A DNA stretch of 64,000 nucleotides from Thermoplasmatota archaeon. GTDB lineage: Archaea > Thermoplasmatota > SW-10-69-26 > JACQPN01 > JAJPHT01. How positions within the stretch are numbered: position 1 is the first letter of the stretch; each line of letters begins with the position of its first letter. The translations under genes and the position numbers were made by a program. Shown piece after piece: positions 896 through 64,000 of this stretch. The notes under the pieces are model-generated. The model saw nothing but the letters and a program-made list of their open reading frames with translations, did not search any database and was not told the origin of the DNA. The DNA is taken from NCBI GenBank assembly GCA_035526585.1, contig DATLCC010000087.1:80-64079 (forward strand), in the 5' to 3' direction.

Positions 896-1134
896 AGCCC
901 CGAAAGGATTGATATCCCCCAGACGCCTCGCCACACCGGTTCGGCCGGCAGTCGCGACGCTGGCACCCGACGCCGCGCGCATGAAGCGCGGCGCACACGC
1001 TGACGGGCCAGCGTCAGCTCCGGCGGCCGGACCGGTGGTGGTGGCGGGGGAGGGGCCCGCAGTTCGGTCAGCCCAGCGCGAGCTTTCGGCGCCCCCTCCG
1101 CAAGCGCTAACGGCGCATCCCGTCATCGTCGGCC

Positions 1135-9117: not shown

Positions 9118-9458
9118 GATGATACGACGAGGCAGGCGAGCCCACAAGATAAGGCTGGAGGCGCAGGTGCCCGGATGCCGGGCGCACCCCCTGTTCGGGT
9201 GGAGCGGGTGGAGCCGGGTCCCTCCTGGGGCCGCGGGCGGGTCGGACCCGACCCCCATGGTTTCGTGTCCGCCGGCGGGCGGGGCAGTGTTTCCACCGGC
9301 TCCACTTTCGGAGCCCCTCCTCGAATCTCTTTGCCCTGCGGGCGGATGGATGGGTTCCCGATGGTTCCGATGCAGGCCGCACCTGAACGCGCAGCGTTTC
9401 CGCTGGCATTCATGTGCTCGGCGTGCATTCGGCTCCTTCCCGCGACGCCCTGATCCCC

Positions 9459-12326: not shown

Positions 12327-13274
12327 CTAGACGAGCTGCATCGCGAGGAAAGCGCCGACAGCCGCGACCGGAAGGATCCACGCCCCGCGCAGGTTGATCG
12401 TCCGTGAGCGGGCGGGATCCTTCCAACGGATGTCGGACAGCGCGACGAGCGCCGTGATCAGCACGCTCCCGAAGAGGAACACGTCGATCGAGAGCATGTA
12501 GCGATCGAGGAAGATCATGTGCGACAGGCTCGGCAGGCTTGCCGACTGGCCGGCGTGGAACATGACGCTGCTGATCGCCATGTTCGCCGTCAACGCGAAC
12601 CGCGTCGCGATCTTGTCCGCTCCCACAAGGAAGAAGGAGACGGCGGAGATGACCACGAACGCGAGCGGCGGCACGATCACCTTGAGGACTCCGGAGAGCA
12701 CGCTGCGCTCCAGCGTCACGACGAAGCGCGCCTGGCTGTACGGCTCGTCGAAGCTGTAGTCGTTCTGGATCGTCTCGAACGACCAGTTCCGCACCTCCCA
12801 GCCTGCGGCCTGGAAGTCGTCGTCGAGCCCGCTCTTCTCGGTGCGCGGCGCGTACACGAGCTGGCTCTGCGGGAATGCGGTGTCCTCCACGCGGACCTCG
12901 ATCGTCTGGCGGTCGAACGGGTACGCGTCGAAGCGCGGCTCGCTGTACAGGTTGGCCTGGATCCGGTACCAGAGCTCGCGCATGCCCGTGGTCTCGTTCA
13001 CGAGGTCCGCCTGGAGGTCGCGGCTCGTCGCCCGGCCATTCGCGAACTCGAACGCGCCCGGCGTGAAATCGGGGGGCGCGCGTTGCGGGTCCCACGTCAT
13101 GACGAGGTAGAAGTCCAGCACGTAGCTGCCCTGCTTCGCGTCGTAGTTGCCGAGGTTCACGACGACCACCGTGATGTCGACGCGCACGGGATCCTGCGCC
13201 TGCGCAACACCCGACGGAGTGACCACAAGCAGGAGAAGCCCGACGACGACAAGCCACCGCTCCACGAAGGGCAC
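12327..13274 (-). CDS. Pentameric ligand-gated ion channel (Cys-loop receptor / GLIC-ELIC family) homologue
   Basis: A signal peptide is followed by a beta-rich extracellular domain of about 190 aa with the hallmark loop YPFDRQTIEVRVE. Four C-terminal TM helices follow (VLKVIVPPLAFVVISAVSFFLV, ..FALTANMAISSVMF.., ..YMLSIDVFLFGSVLITALV.., ..AWILPVAAVGAFLAMQLV). The start is uncertain: ATG 13355 or 13322, or GTG 13274 or 13265. The GTG starts give a clean signal peptide and lie about 25-30 nt from the only AT-rich site (TTAA 13292-13295). Confidence 0.8.
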   Translation of the reverse strand: MPFVERWLVVVGLLLLVVTPSGVAQAQDPVRVDITVVVVNLGNYDAKQGSYVLDFYLVMTWDPQRAPPDFTPGAFEFANGRATSRDLQADLVNETTGMRELWYRIQANLYSEPRFDAYPFDRQTIEVRVEDTAFPQSQLVYAPRTEKSGLDDDFQAAGWEVRNWSFETIQNDYSFDEPYSQARFVVTLERSVLSGVLKVIVPPLAFVVISAVSFFLVGADKIATRFALTANMAISSVMFHAGQSASLPSLSHMIFLDRYMLSIDVFLFGSVLITALVALSDIRWKDPARSRTINLRGAWILPVAAVGAFLAMQLV

Positions 13275-13346
13275 AGGCAGGAGATCGCCCCTTAACGGTT
13301 TGGTGCGCACCGGAACACCCATCCGGCGCGGCCGCCTGCGAGCCAC

Positions 13347-14207
13347 GTGGCCCATCGCGCCGGGGATATCGTGGACCTCGTGCGCCTCACGCGCCCCGCG
13401 AATGCGTTCGTGGCAGCCGCGGGCGCGTACGTCGGCGCGCTCCTCTCCGGCGCGGCGTGGGTCCCGGAGCGCGCGGTCATCGCCTCAATGATCGCCGCGT
13501 TCACGTTCGCCGCCGCAGGCAACGTGCGCAACGACCTCGGCGACATCGCGATCGACCGCGTCGCGCACCCCGAGCGCCCGCTCGCGCGCGGCAGCATCCA
13601 CGCGGCGCAGGCCCGCCAGCTCGCTGTCGGGCTCTACCTCGTCTCGCTCGCAGCCGCGCTCCTCGTCTCCTGGTGGGGCGCGCTCCTCGTCCTCCTCGCG
13701 CTCCCCCTCATGGAAGCGTACGAACGCTGGGGGAAGGCGCGTGGCCTCCCGGGCAACCTCCTCGTCGCGCTCCTCACCGGCGCCCCCTTCGTCCTTGGCG
13801 CCCTCGCGGGCGGCGGACATGTCGGCCCGGCCGCGCTCGCGGTGGCCGCCCTCGCCGCGCTCGCCACCGCGGGGCGCGAGGTGCTCAAGGACGTGGAGGA
13901 CGTCGAAGCCGACGTCGGCTTCCGCCGCACGCTCCCGATGCGCATCGGCGCGCGCCGCGCAGCGCTCGTCGCGGGCGCGTTCCTCCTTGCCGCGGCCCTC
14001 CTCTCGCCGCTGCCCTTTCTCCTCGAAACCGTTTTAGGCGAATGGTATCTTCTTGGCGTCGTCGCCGCAGACGCCTGTTTCCTCGCCGCCGCGGCGATGG
14101 GCAGCCGCGCGCCAGGACGCGCGCAGCGCCTCGTGAAGCTGGGCATGGTCGCGGCGCTCCTCGCGCTCGTCCTGGGGCGCGCAAGCTTCGTGGAGATGAC
14201 CCTGTGA
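13347..14207 (+). CDS. UbiA-family prenyltransferase, probable digeranylgeranylglyceryl phosphate (DGGGP) synthase
   Basis: 286 aa and polytopic. The Asp-rich motifs are NVRNDLGDIAIDR and KDVEDVEAD. It is translationally coupled (GTGA) to the GGGP synthase. Confidence 0.8.
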   Translation: MAHRAGDIVDLVRLTRPANAFVAAAGAYVGALLSGAAWVPERAVIASMIAAFTFAAAGNVRNDLGDIAIDRVAHPERPLARGSIHAAQARQLAVGLYLVSLAAALLVSWWGALLVLLALPLMEAYERWGKARGLPGNLLVALLTGAPFVLGALAGGGHVGPAALAVAALAALATAGREVLKDVEDVEADVGFRRTLPMRIGARRAALVAGAFLLAAALLSPLPFLLETVLGEWYLLGVVAADACFLAAAAMGSRAPGRAQRLVKLGMVAALLALVLGRASFVEMTL

Positions 14208-14959
14208 CCGAGCGCGTGTGGGAGACCGTCCAGCGCCTGCTGCGCGACGGGCCCATCCACATGACGCTCCTGGACCCCGCCTCCTCGCCCGGACGCGCCG
14301 GCGAAGAGATCGCGACCATCGCCGCCTCGAAAGGCACGCACGCGATCATGGTCGGCGGCTCCACCGACGTCTCGAGCGACAACCTCGACACGCTCGTGCA
14401 GCACATCAAGGAGAAGACGCACCTCCCCGTCATCTACTTCCCGAGCACGTCGGGCGCCATGAGCTCGCACGTCGACGCGATCTACTTCCTCAGCGTCCTC
14501 AACAGCCGCGACCCGCGCTTCATCGTGCGCGAGCAGGCGCTGGGCGCGCCCCTCATCAAGGCGATCGGCATGGAAGCGATCCCGATGGGCTACATCCTCG
14601 TCGAGCCGGGGATGAAGGTCGGCGCGGTGAGCGACGCACACCTCATCGAGCGCACGAAACACGGCGCCGAGCGCGCGGCCGGCCTCGCCCTCGCCGCCCA
14701 ATACTTCGGCATGAAGCTCGTCTACCTCGAATGCGGCAGCGGCGCCCCCAGCCCCTGCCCGGTAGACATCGTGCGTGCCGTCCGCGAGGTCCTCGACATC
14801 CCGCTCGTCGTGGGGGGCGGCATCCGCAGCGGCGCCGAGGCGCGCGCCCTCCTCGAAGCGGGCGCCGACGTCCTCGTCACGGGGACGATCGCCGAGAACC
14901 GGCAGTTCGACCGGCTGGGCGAGGTCGTGGCGACGGTGCGCGAGCGGCGACGGGCGTGA
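14204..14959 (+). CDS. Geranylgeranylglyceryl phosphate (GGGP) synthase, PcrB family
   Basis: This is the C-terminal part of track ORF 13457..14959. GTG 14204 overlaps the upstream stop. Motifs are HMTLLDP, IMVGGST, YLECGSGA and VVGGGIRS. Confidence 0.9.
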   Translation: MTERVWETVQRLLRDGPIHMTLLDPASSPGRAGEEIATIAASKGTHAIMVGGSTDVSSDNLDTLVQHIKEKTHLPVIYFPSTSGAMSSHVDAIYFLSVLNSRDPRFIVREQALGAPLIKAIGMEAIPMGYILVEPGMKVGAVSDAHLIERTKHGAERAAGLALAAQYFGMKLVYLECGSGAPSPCPVDIVRAVREVLDIPLVVGGGIRSGAEARALLEAGADVLVTGTIAENRQFDRLGEVVATVRERRRA

Positions 14960-15092
14960 GATGCCAAGTGGCGCCACATGGCGCCATGTGGGGGACATTT
15001 CAACGCTTCAACGGTCAAAACCCCGGCCTGGCGCGGGCGCGCGTGCGCGAGCCAGCATGTTTCAACCACTGTTCAACGAGGGGTCCAATCCC

Positions 15093-34563: not shown

Positions 34564-35385
34564 ATGTGCCGCATGGTGGCCGTCGTGGGCACCCGCGCTG
34601 CGGGCGTCGACATCGCGCGCCGCTTCCGCCGCGAGGCGCACGAGGGGCGGGTCGCGCGCGGGGCCGCTCCCGGCCACAGGGACGGCTGGGGGATCGCCTA
34701 CGCCGACGCGAACGGCGCGCTCCGATACGCGGGCCGATCGACCGCCGACGCCGCGACGGACCCGGCCTACACCGAGGCGCTCGACACGCTGGCCGCAGGG
34801 GCTGGCGCGCGCGGGGTCGCCGGAGCGAGCGAGGACCAAGCCGCGCGCAGCTCGCGCATCGTGATGCTGGCGCACGTGCGCAAGATGACGCTGGGCGCCA
34901 AAGCGATCGAGAACACGCACCCCTTCCTCGCAGAAGGGCTCGCGCTGGCCCACAACGGCACGGTGCACGGCTTCGCGGCTCCGGGCCAGAACGACACGCG
35001 CGCGCTGTTCGCGCGCCTCCTCGACGAGCGCCGCAGGGGCGCCAGCGTCGGGGACGCGCTCGTGGCACTGGCCCGCGACGTGGAGGCGCGCTCGACCTTC
35101 ACCTCGCTCACGCTCCTCGTCACCGACGGCGCAAGCCTCTGGGGGCTGCGCCTCGTCGGGAACGACCCCGTCGCCTGCGCGCCCGAGGCATGCGCCTCCG
35201 ACTACTACACGCTGGGCCACGCCACGCTCGCCGACGGAAGCGTCGTCCTGAGCCAGGAGCACGAGGTGCTCGGGCTTGCCGGCTGGACGCCCATCGCGGA
35301 CGGCGCGCTCGTCCACGTGGACCCACATGGGCGCATCCGGACGCGCCTGGCGCTCGAAAAGCCGAAAGGGTCATCCCCCGCGTGA
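34564..35385 (+). CDS. Class II (Ntn) glutamine amidotransferase-like protein, YafJ type
   Basis: 273 aa. It has an N-terminal MCR.. (catalytic Cys2) and a GATase_4-like profile (HVRKMTLG..NTHPF..HNG). Confidence 0.75.
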   Translation: MCRMVAVVGTRAAGVDIARRFRREAHEGRVARGAAPGHRDGWGIAYADANGALRYAGRSTADAATDPAYTEALDTLAAGAGARGVAGASEDQAARSSRIVMLAHVRKMTLGAKAIENTHPFLAEGLALAHNGTVHGFAAPGQNDTRALFARLLDERRRGASVGDALVALARDVEARSTFTSLTLLVTDGASLWGLRLVGNDPVACAPEACASDYYTLGHATLADGSVVLSQEHEVLGLAGWTPIADGALVHVDPHGRIRTRLALEKPKGSSPA

Positions 35386-48600: not shown

Positions 48601-48796
48601 CTAGAATCGGCCGCCCATCCCTCCGTATCGTATTTAGCGGTTTGTCGGTGGCGACCGAATGGACGGGACTCGCCTCGGGGAAGGGGCCCATCCGGACCCG
48701 TCCGGATCGAGGGCCGAAGGCCCGAGAGAGGACGAATCGCAGCGAGAGACCAGTTCTTCGTCCGACCCCAGATCCGGCGGCGGCGGTGGGGCGGCT

Positions 48797-48850
48797 GGAT
48801 CCACCGGGCGCCAGGTGGATCCAGGTGGATCCAGGTGGATCCAGGTGGCT
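48797..48850. repeat. Phased 10-bp tandem array: GGATCCACC-gggcg-(CCAGGTGGAT)x3-CCAGGTGGCT
   Basis: Read directly from the sequence. It uses the same 10-mer as the array at 63366-63415 but in reverse orientation. It abuts the stop of the asparaginase-II-like gene and lies about 200-250 nt upstream of the uvrA start. Confidence 0.9.
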
Positions 48851-54122: not shown

Positions 54123-54206
54123 TGCCCCGAACGAGGCCGCGCTCCGGGATGAAGCTTCGCGGAGGGCGGCCGAAAGCGGGAAAAGCCACGAGGGCCCTCG
54201 AAGCGC

Positions 54207-61321: not shown

Positions 61322-61492
61322 GAGGCCGAGGCTTAGGCCGAGGACGAGGAAGGGACGAGAACGAGGCCGAGGTCTCGCGCCACGCGTCGTACCGCCTGGC
61401 TTCCACGTGGGGTCCACGTGGCAGCACCTGCGCCTCCTCTTCGTCCGCGTCCTCGTCCTCGTCCTCCCTCGGCCTAAGCCTGGGCCTCGGCC
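61322..61492. repeat. Long imperfect inverted repeat: purine-rich arm 61322-61372 and pyrimidine-rich arm 61433-61492, enclosing twin CCACGTGG palindromes
   Basis: The left arm is GAGGCCGAGGCTTAGGCCGAGGACGAGGAAGGGACGAGAACGAGGCCGAGG. The right arm read in reverse complement is GGCCGAGGCCCAGGCTTAGGCCGAGGGAGGACGAGGACGAGGACGCGGACGAAGAGGAGG. CCACGTGG occurs at 61403-61410 and 61414-61421. Confidence 0.8.
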
Positions 61493-61521
61493 TTATGCGG
61501 CGGGAGCCGCATGCCTCCCGC

Positions 61522-61779
61522 ATGGGCATCGCCACCTGGCTCAAGGAACGCCGTCTCGAGCGCACGCACCGGAAGCTCAAGCACCTGCGCGCGTTCCAGT
61601 CGCGCCTGCGTGACCAGGAGGCCGACGTCGTGAACCAGCGCAAGGCCGGCGCGCCCTCGACCGAGCTCGAGGCCAAGGAGCGCAAGCTCCACGAGGAGCG
61701 CGAGAAGCTCACGCGCGAGATCAAGACGCTCCAGGCCGAGGAAGAGAAGCTCAAGGCCGAGCTGAAGCTGGCGGCTTGA
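61522..61779 (+). CDS. Small coiled-coil protein (hypothetical)
   Basis: MGIATWLKERRLERTHRKLKHLRAFQSRLRDQEADVV..EAKERKLHEEREKLTREIKTLQAEEEKLKAELKLAA shows a heptad-like charged pattern. The track start 61495 lies inside the inverted repeat. Coding status is uncertain. Confidence 0.4.
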   Translation: MGIATWLKERRLERTHRKLKHLRAFQSRLRDQEADVVNQRKAGAPSTELEAKERKLHEEREKLTREIKTLQAEEEKLKAELKLAA

Positions 61780-62956: not shown

Positions 62957-63077
62957 GGGCGCTTAGATCAGTTGGTAGATCACTCCCTTGGCATCGGCAG
63001 TCGACGCGTGCTGCGGCACGCGTCTCTGCCGCACTGCTGTGCGGAGAGGCCGCGAGTTCGAATCTCGCGAGAGCCCA
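62957..63077 (+). tRNA. tRNA-Ala(GGC)-like gene with a 48-nt intron-like insertion after the anticodon; aberrant acceptor (possible pseudogene)
   Basis: The 5' half, through the anticodon loop (GGGCGCTTAGATCAGTTGGTAGATCACTCCCTTGGCAT), is identical to the intact tRNA-Ala 156 nt downstream. An insertion lies at 62995-63042 (CGGCAG-TC-GACGCGTGC-TGCG-GCACGCGTC-T-CTGCCG..). The T arm is intact. The 3' acceptor is AGAGCCC, giving G3:C70 instead of G3:U70, one G-A mismatch and one extra nucleotide. Confidence 0.5.
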
Positions 63078-63112: not shown

Positions 63113-63185
63113 GGGCGCTTAGATCAGTTGGTAGATCACTCCCTTGGCATGGGAGAGGCCGCGAGTTCGAATCTCGCAGCGTCCA
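63113..63185 (+). tRNA. tRNA-Ala (anticodon GGC)
   Basis: Hand-folded. The acceptor GGGCGCT/AGCGTCC contains the G3:U70 identity pair. The anticodon stem is CTCCC/GGGAG with loop TTGGCAT. The T arm is GCGAG-TTCGAAT-CTCGC. Confidence 0.9.
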
Positions 63186-63365
63186 TTCAAGAAGGGTCGT
63201 CCGCGCTGTCGCGCGCCCGTGTGGCGAGCGCGGCGTCGTGACTGCAGCGGCGTACTGTCTTTTCTGAGCCTCATGGTGAAGGGCCGAAGCGCGGCGTTTG
63301 CCGCGCACGAGGGGGGAGCACCGCGGATCGGGCGGTTCGTGCCCGTGCGGCACCTGGAGTCAGTT

Positions 63366-63415
63366 GGATCCACCTGGATCCACCTGGATCCACCTGGCAC
63401 CACCTGGATCCACCT
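63366..63415. repeat. Phased 10-bp tandem array: (GGATCCACCT)x3-GGCACCACCT-GGATCCACCT
   Basis: Read directly from the sequence. It has five head-to-tail units with no spacers and is flanked on both sides by CACCTGGAG. Confidence 0.95.
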
Positions 63416-63455
63416 GGAGGCCGCTGACCCCGATCGATCGCCAATGGCCCCGCGC

Positions 63456-63737
63456 TCACCCCGGCATCTGCAATTCGCGCCCGAACCATGTCGGTTCGAA
63501 GTATTCGCCGATCGGGTCTCTTCCTTCGCGGACAAGACCTTGGCCTGCAAGCGAGAGCTCGATCGAGTAGTCGGGTGGGTCCCCTCGTACCATGCCTCTG
63601 ATCCGAGTGGGACGGATCCCGGTCGCGTCGGCGAGCTCGCCTACGCGTGCGCGCCCTCGTGCGCGGATCTCGTCGTACAGGATCTCACGGTCGTCGCTTC
63701 GTCGGAAGGAGCGTGCGATGTCGCCGCCAGCATGCAT
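63456..63737 (-). CDS. Small winged-helix DNA-binding protein (hypothetical)
   Basis: 93 aa. ILYDEIRARGRARVGELADATGIRPTRIRGMVRG is an HTH-like segment. It sits between the two inverted 10-bp arrays. Confidence 0.5.
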   Translation of the reverse strand: MHAGGDIARSFRRSDDREILYDEIRARGRARVGELADATGIRPTRIRGMVRGDPPDYSIELSLAGQGLVREGRDPIGEYFEPTWFGRELQMPG

Positions 63738-63813
63738 CGGCGGTAGAGAGTGGTCGGTGGGATATCATGGTTCTCGGCGCGTCACGTCATGGGGGGGTCG
63801 CCGAATGTATCGT

Positions 63814-63853
63814 CCAGATGGATCCAGCTGGATCCTGATGGCGCCTGCTGGTC
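63814..63853. repeat. Degenerate 10-bp array in inverse orientation: CCAGATGGAT-CCAGCTGGAT-CCTGATGGCG-CCTGCTGGTC
   Basis: The reverse complement gives GGATCCAGCT and GGATCCATCT, each differing by 1 nt from GGATCCACCT. The outer two units are eroded. Confidence 0.7.
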
Positions 63854-63905
63854 GCAAGGACCGATCGTGCTCACGCTGGCCCAAGAAAAGGTGAGAAGAA
63901 GGGTC

Positions 63906-63928
63906 GGGCCGCGCGTCATGCGCGGCCC
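63906..63928 (-). terminator. GC hairpin (GGGCCGCGC-GTCAT-GCGCGGCCC) followed on the minus strand by a T-rich run
   Basis: It lies 18 nt after the stop of the partial minus-strand CDS at the window edge. The downstream minus-strand sequence is ..CTTCTTCTCACCTTTTCTTGG. Confidence 0.4.
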
Positions 63929-63945
63929 GATTGGCTCGACGCGCC

Positions 63946-64000
63946 TCAGGCGCCCACGTGGTAGTTCGTCGCGGCGTCGCCGTTGTTGCCAAGCTTCGCG
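63946..64000 (-). CDS. 3' end of an unidentified gene running in from beyond the window
   Basis: Reverse-frame reading ends ..AKLGNNGDAATNYHVGA-stop (TGA at 63946-63948), followed by a hairpin and T-tract. The fragment is too short to classify. Confidence 0.3.
   Translation of the reverse strand, partial: AKLGNNGDAATNYHVGA

Follow-up and report, generated by a model that had tools for sequence, protein, structure and literature searches.

Characterised members of the EarA family activate transcription via several short adjacent sites just upstream of the B recognition element (BRE) (PMC5512572, PMC10665913, PMC13286277), and Thermococcales EarA has one to three adjacent 8-bp motifs located ~9 nt upstream of the BRE (PMC10665913). 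Here, we describe a locus in a stretch of 64,000 nucleotides from an uncultured soil Thermoplasmatota archaeon (assembly GCA_035526585.1, contig DATLCC010000087.1, positions 80 to 64,079; this whole stretch is referred to as the window), in which the gene for a 93-amino-acid (aa) EarA-like protein is bracketed by two inverted arrays with a period of 10 bp. Like EarA of Methanococcus maripaludis, Pyrococcus and Thermococcus, the 93-aa protein is a small archaeal winged helix of Pfam family PF07381, and the several short adjacent repeated sites upstream of BRE/TATA at EarA targets may have a counterpart in the tandem sites upstream of the window gene's own promoter. Still, the protein reaches only ~26 bits to the Pfam model and gives no match to the NCBIfam EarA model. 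EarA usually neighbours the archaellum (arl/fla) operon, whereas no archaellum genes are found among those scanned in the window. The sites differ as well, with one to four TACATA-type sites for EarA and a CCAnnTGG motif of strict 10-bp period (4–12 units) here, placed on both sides of the factor's own gene and accompanied by a second conserved box. Relative to known EarA systems, the locus is best filed as a putatively autoregulatory variant that combines long phased arrays with a second box and is unlinked to archaellum genes. To our knowledge, how uncultured Thermoplasmatota control transcription is almost entirely uncharted, and the only role described for EarA-family proteins is that of archaellum activators.

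Other described systems share parts of this architecture. AspA of the Sulfolobus plasmid pNOB8 (PDB 5K5Q, 4RS8) is of similar size (84–98 aa), has a winged-helix fold and is among the better PDB matches of the 93-aa protein; its binding site adjoins its own gene, and it spreads on DNA. The match is weak (E ~1e-3 over the helix-turn-helix (HTH) only, Foldseek E ~2e-2) and no better than that to MarR or TFE. Moreover, AspA is partnered by parA/parB, whereas the EarA-like locus is chromosomal, without such genes and without plasmid homologs. Winged helices of the OmpR/PhoB type bind head-to-tail on direct repeats (pho boxes) about one turn apart, upstream of the core promoter, but these bacterial response regulators carry receiver domains, use two to few 11-bp repeats and have no sequence relationship to the 93-aa protein. 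Plasmid iterons, like the arrays in the window, are direct short repeats next to the gene of a small DNA-binding protein. They typically measure ~17–22 bp and lie beside a rep gene and an AT-rich unwinding element, and neither such units, nor rep, nor an AT-rich element are present at the window locus. Finally, for archaeal activators of the Ptr2/Lrp type, multiple upstream sites help to recruit TBP or TFB to sub-optimal core promoters (PMC5512572); these belong to another protein family and use palindromic paired sites without long phased arrays.

Results and discussion

Anatomy of the locus

The features of the locus are compiled in Table 1. A first-pass annotation of the window had reported inverted 10-bp arrays around a 93-aa winged-helix gene, in a module beginning about 180 nt after a tRNA-Ala gene. 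Both elements are real, as judged by Tandem Repeats Finder, shuffle counts, the open reading frame (ORF), a PF07381 match and an AlphaFold2 model, and the distance from the tRNA gene to the first perfect unit was measured as 181 nt. The array extents had to be redrawn: the left array, given as five units at 63366–63415, is longer (63350–63428, ~8 units), and the right one comprises four units at 63814–63851. Tandem Repeats Finder detects a period of 10 at 63365–63418 (5.4 copies, 90% matches, score 94) and at 63813–63841 (2.9 copies, score 44). With at most one mismatch, GGATCCACCT occurs 19 times in the window compared to 3.3 expected, a count attained in 0 of 100 shuffles, and the 8-bp palindrome TGGATCCA is found nine times compared to 0.45 expected, with all nine copies falling in three arrays. 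The repeat core is best written CCAnnTGG with a period of 10 bp and a variable dinucleotide between cores; the units consist of overlapping palindromes (TGGATCCA, GTGGCGCCAC). The two flanking arrays are complementary to each other at 74–78% across 37–39 nt.

Read on the strand of the gene, the order is terminator, four units, box, TGATATC, ATG (63737), stop (63456) and ~8 units. The upstream array ends 77 nt before the ATG, a distance identical to that in the closest homologous locus (L001, see below), and the box reads ATACATTCGGCGACCCCC at 63810–63793. The downstream array begins 28 nt past the stop codon, between the winged-helix gene and tRNA-Ala. The gene is monocistronic and convergent with tRNA-Ala, while the stop codon and hairpin/T-rich terminator of the preceding gene set the module apart from its upstream neighbour. 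As the GATATC element stands 29 nt 5' of the ATG, the mRNA is presumably leaderless or near-leaderless. Local GC content is 0.63–0.68, with no AT-rich stretch. The exact helical phasing proposed earlier, with every site on one face of the DNA, applies in part. The 10-bp period is confirmed, but at 10.0 bp versus ~10.5 bp per turn successive units drift by ~17 degrees (own calculation) and share a face only over 3–4 units; a long filament would therefore wind slowly around the helix, off any single face.

Table 1. Coordinates of the winged-helix locus and of related arrays and boxes in the window
Feature	Position	Strand	Description
Exact 15-mer box CTTTCGGCGCCCCCT	1083–1097	+	T of TTCGG 50 nt before GTG of Lhr-type helicase gene
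Weaker array	14954–14992		CCAAGTGGCG CCACATGGCG CCATGTGG; starts 4 nt past stop of preceding gene
Borderline array (20/24)	35313–35351		Inside 3' end of GATase_4 gene; inverted CTTTCGGC box at 35361–35368
Box variant ATTCGGTCGCCACCGA	48645–48660	-	Ends ~8–10 nt before uvrA TATA box (TAAATA, 48636–48631); weaker, post-hoc match
Third array	48791–48849		4 perfect TGGATCCA cores; abuts TAG stop of asparaginase-II gene
Box CTTTCGGCCGCCCTCC (then GCGAAGC)	54161–54176	-	52 nt before uvrB GTG
tRNA-Ala(GGC)	63113–63185	+	Convergent with winged-helix gene; first perfect array unit 181 nt beyond
Downstream array	63350–63428		~8 units of 10 bp, CCACCTGG + AT/CA/AG on + strand
93-aa EarA-like (PF07381) winged-helix gene	63456–63737	-	ORF and Pfam match
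TATA-like TGATATC	63761–63767	-	G of GATATC 29 nt 5' of ATG
Conserved box ATACATTCGGCGACCCCCCC	63791–63810	-	Family consensus ACTTTCGGCGCCCCCT; first T of TTCGGCG 68 nt 5' of ATG
Upstream array	63814–63851	-	4 units CCAGCAGGCG CCATCAGGAT CCAGCTGGAT CCATCTGG on strand of gene
3' end of preceding minus-strand gene	63880–63947	-	TGA, then hairpin GGGCCGCGCATGACGCGCGGCCC, then T-rich run; read from sequence

The EarA-like protein

The 93-aa protein matches PF07381 over residues 7–83 (E 6.4e-6, 26.3 bits compared to a cut-off of 22), and the same family is found in its homologs. Judged by this profile, it is classed as a divergent member of the EarA family. An AlphaFold2 model based on a 25-sequence alignment gives a winged helix of four helices and a beta-hairpin wing with a predicted local distance difference test (pLDDT) score of 88.9; searches of the PDB with Foldseek and hidden Markov models (HMM) returned only generic winged HTH relatives (MarR family, TFE-alpha, AspA) at E ~1e-2 to 5e-4. 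Both the anatomy of the locus and the fold and family of its product are direct results of the analysis.

The family is small. A word-indexed protein search retrieved one close homolog of 73% identity, an exhaustive search 59 representatives at E <=1e-3, and a protein-guided metagenome scan recovered no relatives. Comparison with the 73%-identical homolog revealed 31 synonymous-only versus 29 nonsynonymous codon differences, and 48 differences at third positions versus 19 and 22 at the other two. Because of this third-position excess and the synonymous and nonsynonymous counts, the ORF is regarded as a real coding gene under purifying selection. The exact protein is missing from a collection of 15 billion proteins in which four neighbouring proteins of the same metagenome-assembled contig are present; therefore, the gene is apparently unannotated.

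Conservation of array, box and TATA-like element

Environmental contigs with homologs down to ~35% identity were obtained by exact-protein look-up. The high-GC homolog loci for which upstream sequence is available carry 10-bp arrays 5' of the gene in the same layout. In L001, which encodes the 73%-identical homolog, arrays lie on both sides of the gene and have cores TGGCGCCA or CCAGCTGG, not TGGATCCA. L012 (protein P0004) features ~110 bp of 10-bp repeats, with CCAGGTGCGG about nine times before a flip to ACCTGGCCGN; as this array is located between divergently transcribed genes, it is 3' of no gene. A similar flip, from CCAGG to CCTGG, is observed among the ~12 units of L136 (P0060). L044 shows an array, the box and then a truncated EarA-like start (VIPRDLEH...), whereas L013 and L135 are short contigs that start at or inside the expected array position, L135 just 5' of the box. 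L011 (34% identity) has ACAGGTGGACCGTCCAGGTGG upstream and the perfect palindrome ACAGGTGGACCGTCCACCTGT downstream. A downstream inverted array is seen only in the window, L001 and L011; thus, the EarA-like gene is bracketed by repeats on both sides at three loci.

Alignment of seven upstream regions reveals a shared succession of a proximal unit CACCTGGC, the box ACTTTCGGCGCCCCCT, a CGTG-containing segment and a GATATC-type element. The box motif TTCGGCG is positioned 67–69 nt before the start codon in all seven loci, and no high-GC EarA-like gene examined lacks it in the promoter. The GATATC-type element aligns in five of the seven: in the window and L001 it stands 29 nt ahead of the start codon, and L013, L044 and L136 have GATATC/GATATG at the aligned site. 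L012 has CTATC at this position, and in L135 the element is absent. The repeat core common to all loci is CCA-SS-TGG (ACCTGG/CCAGGT), with AT between cores in the window and CG in L001, while copy number varies between 3 and 12 units.

The array–box composite and its background in other genomes

A position weight matrix (PWM) of the box was built solely from EarA-like promoters and used to scan 636 kb of fetched loci at a cut-off of 13 bits. Five matches of at least 13 bits were found, and three of these (L027, L044, L054) lie exactly 1 nt past an array and on the same strand. These three loci had been obtained by the array pattern alone, so that the PWM scan is an independent test of the composite. 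As the PWM places a box 1 nt after the array in each of them, we regard array plus box as a genuine composite element with fixed spacing. In L054, the composite precedes a different ORF that is not EarA-like. This ORF contains a CxxxCxxC motif and returned nothing in Pfam, NCBIfam, the PDB or a homolog search at an overly strict threshold of 1e-10; the suspicion of a COG1533/SplB-like radical-SAM enzyme was not confirmed and is not used as evidence. L027 holds two tandem array–box modules at 2200–2347, and neither between nor after them can a protein gene be recognised. They could represent a decayed EarA-like locus or specify a small non-coding transcript. Upstream of the modules is a convergent gene whose sequence alone marks it as UbiB/ABC1-kinase-like.

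In a metagenome scan for three CCASSTGG motifs at 10-bp spacing, only L027, L044, L054 and L132 proved informative among the matches listed. L132 is an archaeal contig with ribosomal protein L10e, and at 926–1025 it shows an array of 11 units of 10 bp, with a flip from CCAGGTGG to CCACCTGG. The array follows the L10e stop codon and precedes the start of an XRE-type HTH gene; this class of arrays also flanks other small regulators. Two abundant mid-/low-GC repeat families were noted among the matches listed (L016–L134, e.g. L020, L056, L033, L069). In their conserved termini, 3–6 copies of CCAGCTGG or CCACCTGG follow one another every 10 bp, as in GTTTTGACGGGTTGCTTGACCCACCTTGGA-[CCAGCTGGNN]n-TACAACACCCTAAAGTTAGCAAGTTGCCAT, and they are probably eukaryote-type mobile-element ends. 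A scan of 185,579 genomes, the source genome not being among them, for TGGATCCANNTGGATCCANNTGG gave nine scattered bacterial intergenic arrays. These are composed of GGATCCACCT or TGGATCCAGG in 3–6 copies (L002–L010; e.g. L005 1811–1870, L008 3471–3530) and occur in Phycisphaerae, Streptomyces, Kitasatospora, Planctomycetota and Acidobacteriota, a distribution consistent with background minisatellites.

Arrays and boxes elsewhere in the window

The window was scanned for four CCANNTGG units at 10-bp spacing with at least 20 of 24 matches, which gave five groups versus 0 in 30 shuffles. The arrays are not private to the winged-helix locus: a third strong array is located at 48791–48849, and weaker ones at 14954–14992 and 35313–35351. 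The earlier caveat that the 10-mers might be scattered simple-sequence repeats is borne out insofar as arrays exist at other intergenic sites, but what recurs is a specific element and not random simple sequence. Recurrence in the genome is, like conservation among homologs, a direct observation. The array at 48791–48849 lies ~160–210 nt upstream of the TATA box of uvrA (uvrA-udg-udg operon). About 105 nt separate the one at 14954–14992 from the TATA box of a downstream gene for an ArsR-domain membrane protein, and the array–box element at 35313–35368 is followed after ~35 nt by a glutamine-synthetase-family gene. Four TTCAAC copies at 14995–15085, arranged in two pairs, TTTCAACGCTTCAACGG and GTTTCAACCACTGTTCAACGAGG, stand between the array at 14954 and the canonical TATA box CTTTATATG and could be a separate operator. 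The gene behind this TATA box encodes a protein of 553 aa that has a signal peptide and, at its C terminus, two ArsR-type HTH domains.

For the box, a PWM from non-window loci was applied at a cut-off of 12 bits. It returned exactly two matches of at least 12 bits in the window, i.e. the EarA-like gene's own promoter (17.8 bits) and the site at 1083–1097 (22 bits), ahead of lhr. The uvrB promoter (CTTTCGGCCGCCCTCCGCGAAGC) is nearly identical to the lhr promoter (CTTTCGGCGCCCCCTCCGCAAGC) over ~24 nt, and the variant in the uvrA promoter reads ATTCGGTCGCCACC. At lhr, uvrB and uvrA, the boxes sit just upstream of weak TATA elements; at lhr and uvrB they occur without arrays. The raw count of CTTTCGGC in the window is five versus 2.7 expected, which is not significant, and looser patterns behaved likewise. 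As such short-core counts are not significant, the argument for the box rests on its position and on the PWM test. Two of the five CTTTCGGC copies are placed 50–52 nt before starts of DNA-repair genes, a post-hoc observation that should be taken as a lead only. A box-like sequence upstream of MCM (9293–9320) was dropped, being below threshold and too far from the start.

A putative autoregulated control module and its alternatives

We hold with high confidence that the arrays are functional cis-elements tied to the EarA-like gene. Beyond this, our preferred reading is that the locus is a self-contained composite region through which an EarA-like factor controls its own gene, the factor having additional targets on the chromosome; to this reading we assign a chance slightly better than even. 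A self-regulating control module is favoured over the edge of a plasmid or virus because arrays and box are conserved around relatives. The operator-array or autoregulatory option named in the first-pass annotation thereby gains comparative support, since arrays lie upstream of the gene in high-GC homolog loci and EarA members bind tandem sites. The bracketing of the gene on both sides is typical of autoregulated DNA-binding proteins. We infer that the 93-aa protein itself is the binder of the arrays or the box; for the arrays, the balance tips narrowly in its favour. The protein would bind successive units roughly on one helix face and polymerise cooperatively. Head-to-tail binding of winged helices, with OmpR/PhoB as precedent, would suit direct repeats one turn apart. 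At the box-proximal unit, bound protein may help or hinder TFB/TBP at its own promoter, so that autoregulation of either sign is conceivable. The downstream array could loop to the upstream array, or act as a roadblock that shields the convergent tRNA gene. Through the array and box motifs at uvrA, uvrB, lhr and other promoters, the EarA-like factor, or a box-reading partner, might regulate further chromosomal genes, and the EarA-like module may be linked to excision-repair promoters in this way. A bolder version, which we consider rather unlikely, is that the composite of 10-bp array and box (CTTTCGGCG plus C-rich run) and the EarA-like protein form a control system of UV/excision-repair genes (uvrA-udg-udg, uvrB, lhr) in high-GC soil Thermoplasmatota. 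We know of no such DNA-damage regulator in this lineage. If true, an EarA-family factor would be in charge of a DNA-damage regulon in an archaeon. In any case, the locus offers a conserved and precisely registered cis-architecture (array, box, TATA element) at a divergent EarA-like gene apparently missed by annotation, together with a short list of further promoters that carry the same motifs, including those of nucleotide-excision-repair genes. This raises the question whether autoregulated regulons outside motility, possibly for DNA repair, have come to employ EarA-type factors. Should the modest reading alone hold, the locus would still be a clear archaeal case of an operator array phased with the helix.

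Several observations weigh against this preferred reading. The NCBIfam scan of the 93-aa protein returned 0 families, with the EarA model ("archaellum operon transcriptional activator EarA family") included; the distant relatives P0062 and P0063 do carry the NCBIfam EarA name. The GC content at third codon positions (GC3) of the ORF is 0.69 compared to 0.85–0.97 for other genes of the window, while the closest homolog in L001 has 0.88; this could reflect relaxed codon adaptation or recent acquisition. No arrays were found in the low-GC homolog locus L014 or at the distant, NCBI-named EarA gene of L137. Among the metagenome matches listed, most belong to unrelated repeat families, so that the CCASSTGG array pattern alone is not diagnostic. 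Furthermore, array and box are two different motifs, and at least one of them may therefore be read by another protein. Arrays also occur with no EarA-like gene nearby, at 14954, 35313 and 48791 in the window as well as in L132, L054 and L027, and because of this the EarA-like gene could be a target rather than the binder. These last points lead to the most serious alternative, in which arrays and/or box are bound by another factor, such as a further transcription factor or a chromatin protein whose position is set by the 10-bp phasing, and the EarA-like gene is merely one target besides uvrA, uvrB, lhr and others. The boxes without arrays at lhr and uvrB and the two modules without a recognisable gene in L027 would fit as well. 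Conversely, the composite is kept beside the EarA-like gene in every high-GC homolog locus with upstream sequence, the bracketing at three loci is of the kind expected of autoregulated DNA-binding proteins, and binding to short repeats in tandem is established for the EarA family (PMC5512572, PMC10665913). We judge this alternative to be plausible but clearly on the unlikely side. It is improbable that the arrays are extragenic palindromic repeats akin to the repetitive extragenic palindromic (REP) class at gene 3' ends, where hairpin clusters in RNA or DNA or protein roadblocks would terminate or insulate transcription, and not promoter operators. Three arrays begin 0–28 nt past a stop codon (48849, 14964, 63428), those of L001 and L011 do so at 13–17 nt, and the units are built from overlapping palindromes. 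However, the 110-bp array of L012 between divergent genes is 3' of nothing, upstream arrays keep a fixed register with the start (77 nt, two loci) and with the box (1 nt, three loci), and T-rich terminators already exist in the genome.

The two remaining explanations are far weaker. The first-pass annotation had suggested that the module could be the edge of an integrated plasmid or virus, or an iteron- or partition-like element. In this explanation, which we consider very improbable, an element integrated at tRNA-Ala would have its border here, or its maintenance region in the form of iterons or of a centromere with an AspA-like binder. The nearby tRNA genes with a second, degenerate tRNA-Ala-like copy, the lower GC3 of the ORF and a weak resemblance in fold and sequence to AspA, which binds the pNOB8 centromere, would be in line with it. 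That resemblance (E ~1e-2 to 1e-3) is equally shown by MarR and TFE, however, and the tRNA-Ala copies lie side by side, 36 nt apart, and flank nothing. No integrase ORF is present in 63186–64000, and the source contig extends at most 1.38 kb beyond the window. The T-arm/3' sequence of tRNA-Ala recurs only in the adjacent upstream pseudo-copy (63052–63068) and not to the right, and a terminated host-like gene directly precedes the module. Near the arrays there are no rep or par genes and no ParA-type NTPase/adaptor operon, and the 10-bp units stand in a GC-rich context. No homolog was detected by tblastn in 72,556 plasmids (PLSDB) or 50,697 phages (INPHARED), nor was one found in a viral scan of IMG/VR. 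Instead, the homologs occupy varied chromosomal neighbourhoods, e.g. with CoxM-type dehydrogenase, FMN reductase and LEA-like genes, and arrays of the same kind are found at housekeeping loci 15–49 kb distant in the window itself. The setting is one of chromosomal housekeeping genes, and neither the iteron or partition proposal nor that of an integrated edge is supported. Slightly less credible still is the notion that the arrays are functionless, neutral minisatellites from replication slippage. Copy number does differ between loci (3–12 units), and arrays of identical units turn up sporadically in unrelated bacteria, but three to five arrays of one motif class fall within 64 kb versus 0 in shuffles, and position, register and orientation are kept across loci whose proteins are just 35–73% identical. 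Readings of the repeats as G-quadruplexes, restriction sites (BamHI, Dcm) or origin recognition box (ORB)-like origins were dropped, as they are without any supporting feature.

Genomic context and further observations

The window is archaeal chromosomal DNA of 70% GC that encodes a thermosome, MCM, purF, shikimate-pathway genes, uvrA, uvrB, two UDG-family genes and the Lhr helicase; no archaellin, ArlI or ArlJ domains were found among the scanned genes of its 64 kb. The EarA-like gene is neighboured by tRNAs, an AlaX-like gene and purF. The second tRNA-Ala(GGC)-like copy, at 62958–63076, is separated by 36 nt from the intact tRNA-Ala downstream of it. The two agree exactly in the first 38 nt and in the T-arm, while the anticodon loop of the second copy contains a 52-nt insertion and its acceptor stem has G3:C70 plus one mismatch. 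This copy scores 30.0 bits against the Rfam tRNA model (gathering score 29), folds into a cloverleaf with an extended anticodon arm (z = -4.1) and is left uncalled by ARAGORN, even in intron mode. It is either a tRNA that carries an intron with a relaxed bulge-helix-bulge motif, or a duplicate in decay.

A small ORF at 61324–61779 (+) is rich in hexamer and 21-bp tandem repeats (Tandem Repeats Finder, 61335–61493 and 61703–61761), and its product is highly charged and coiled-coil-like, without a family match. The ORF at 12327–13484 (-) matches Neur_chan_LBD and Neur_chan_memb (E ~3e-6), the ligand-binding and the transmembrane domain of pentameric ligand-gated ion channels, which are uncommon in Archaea.

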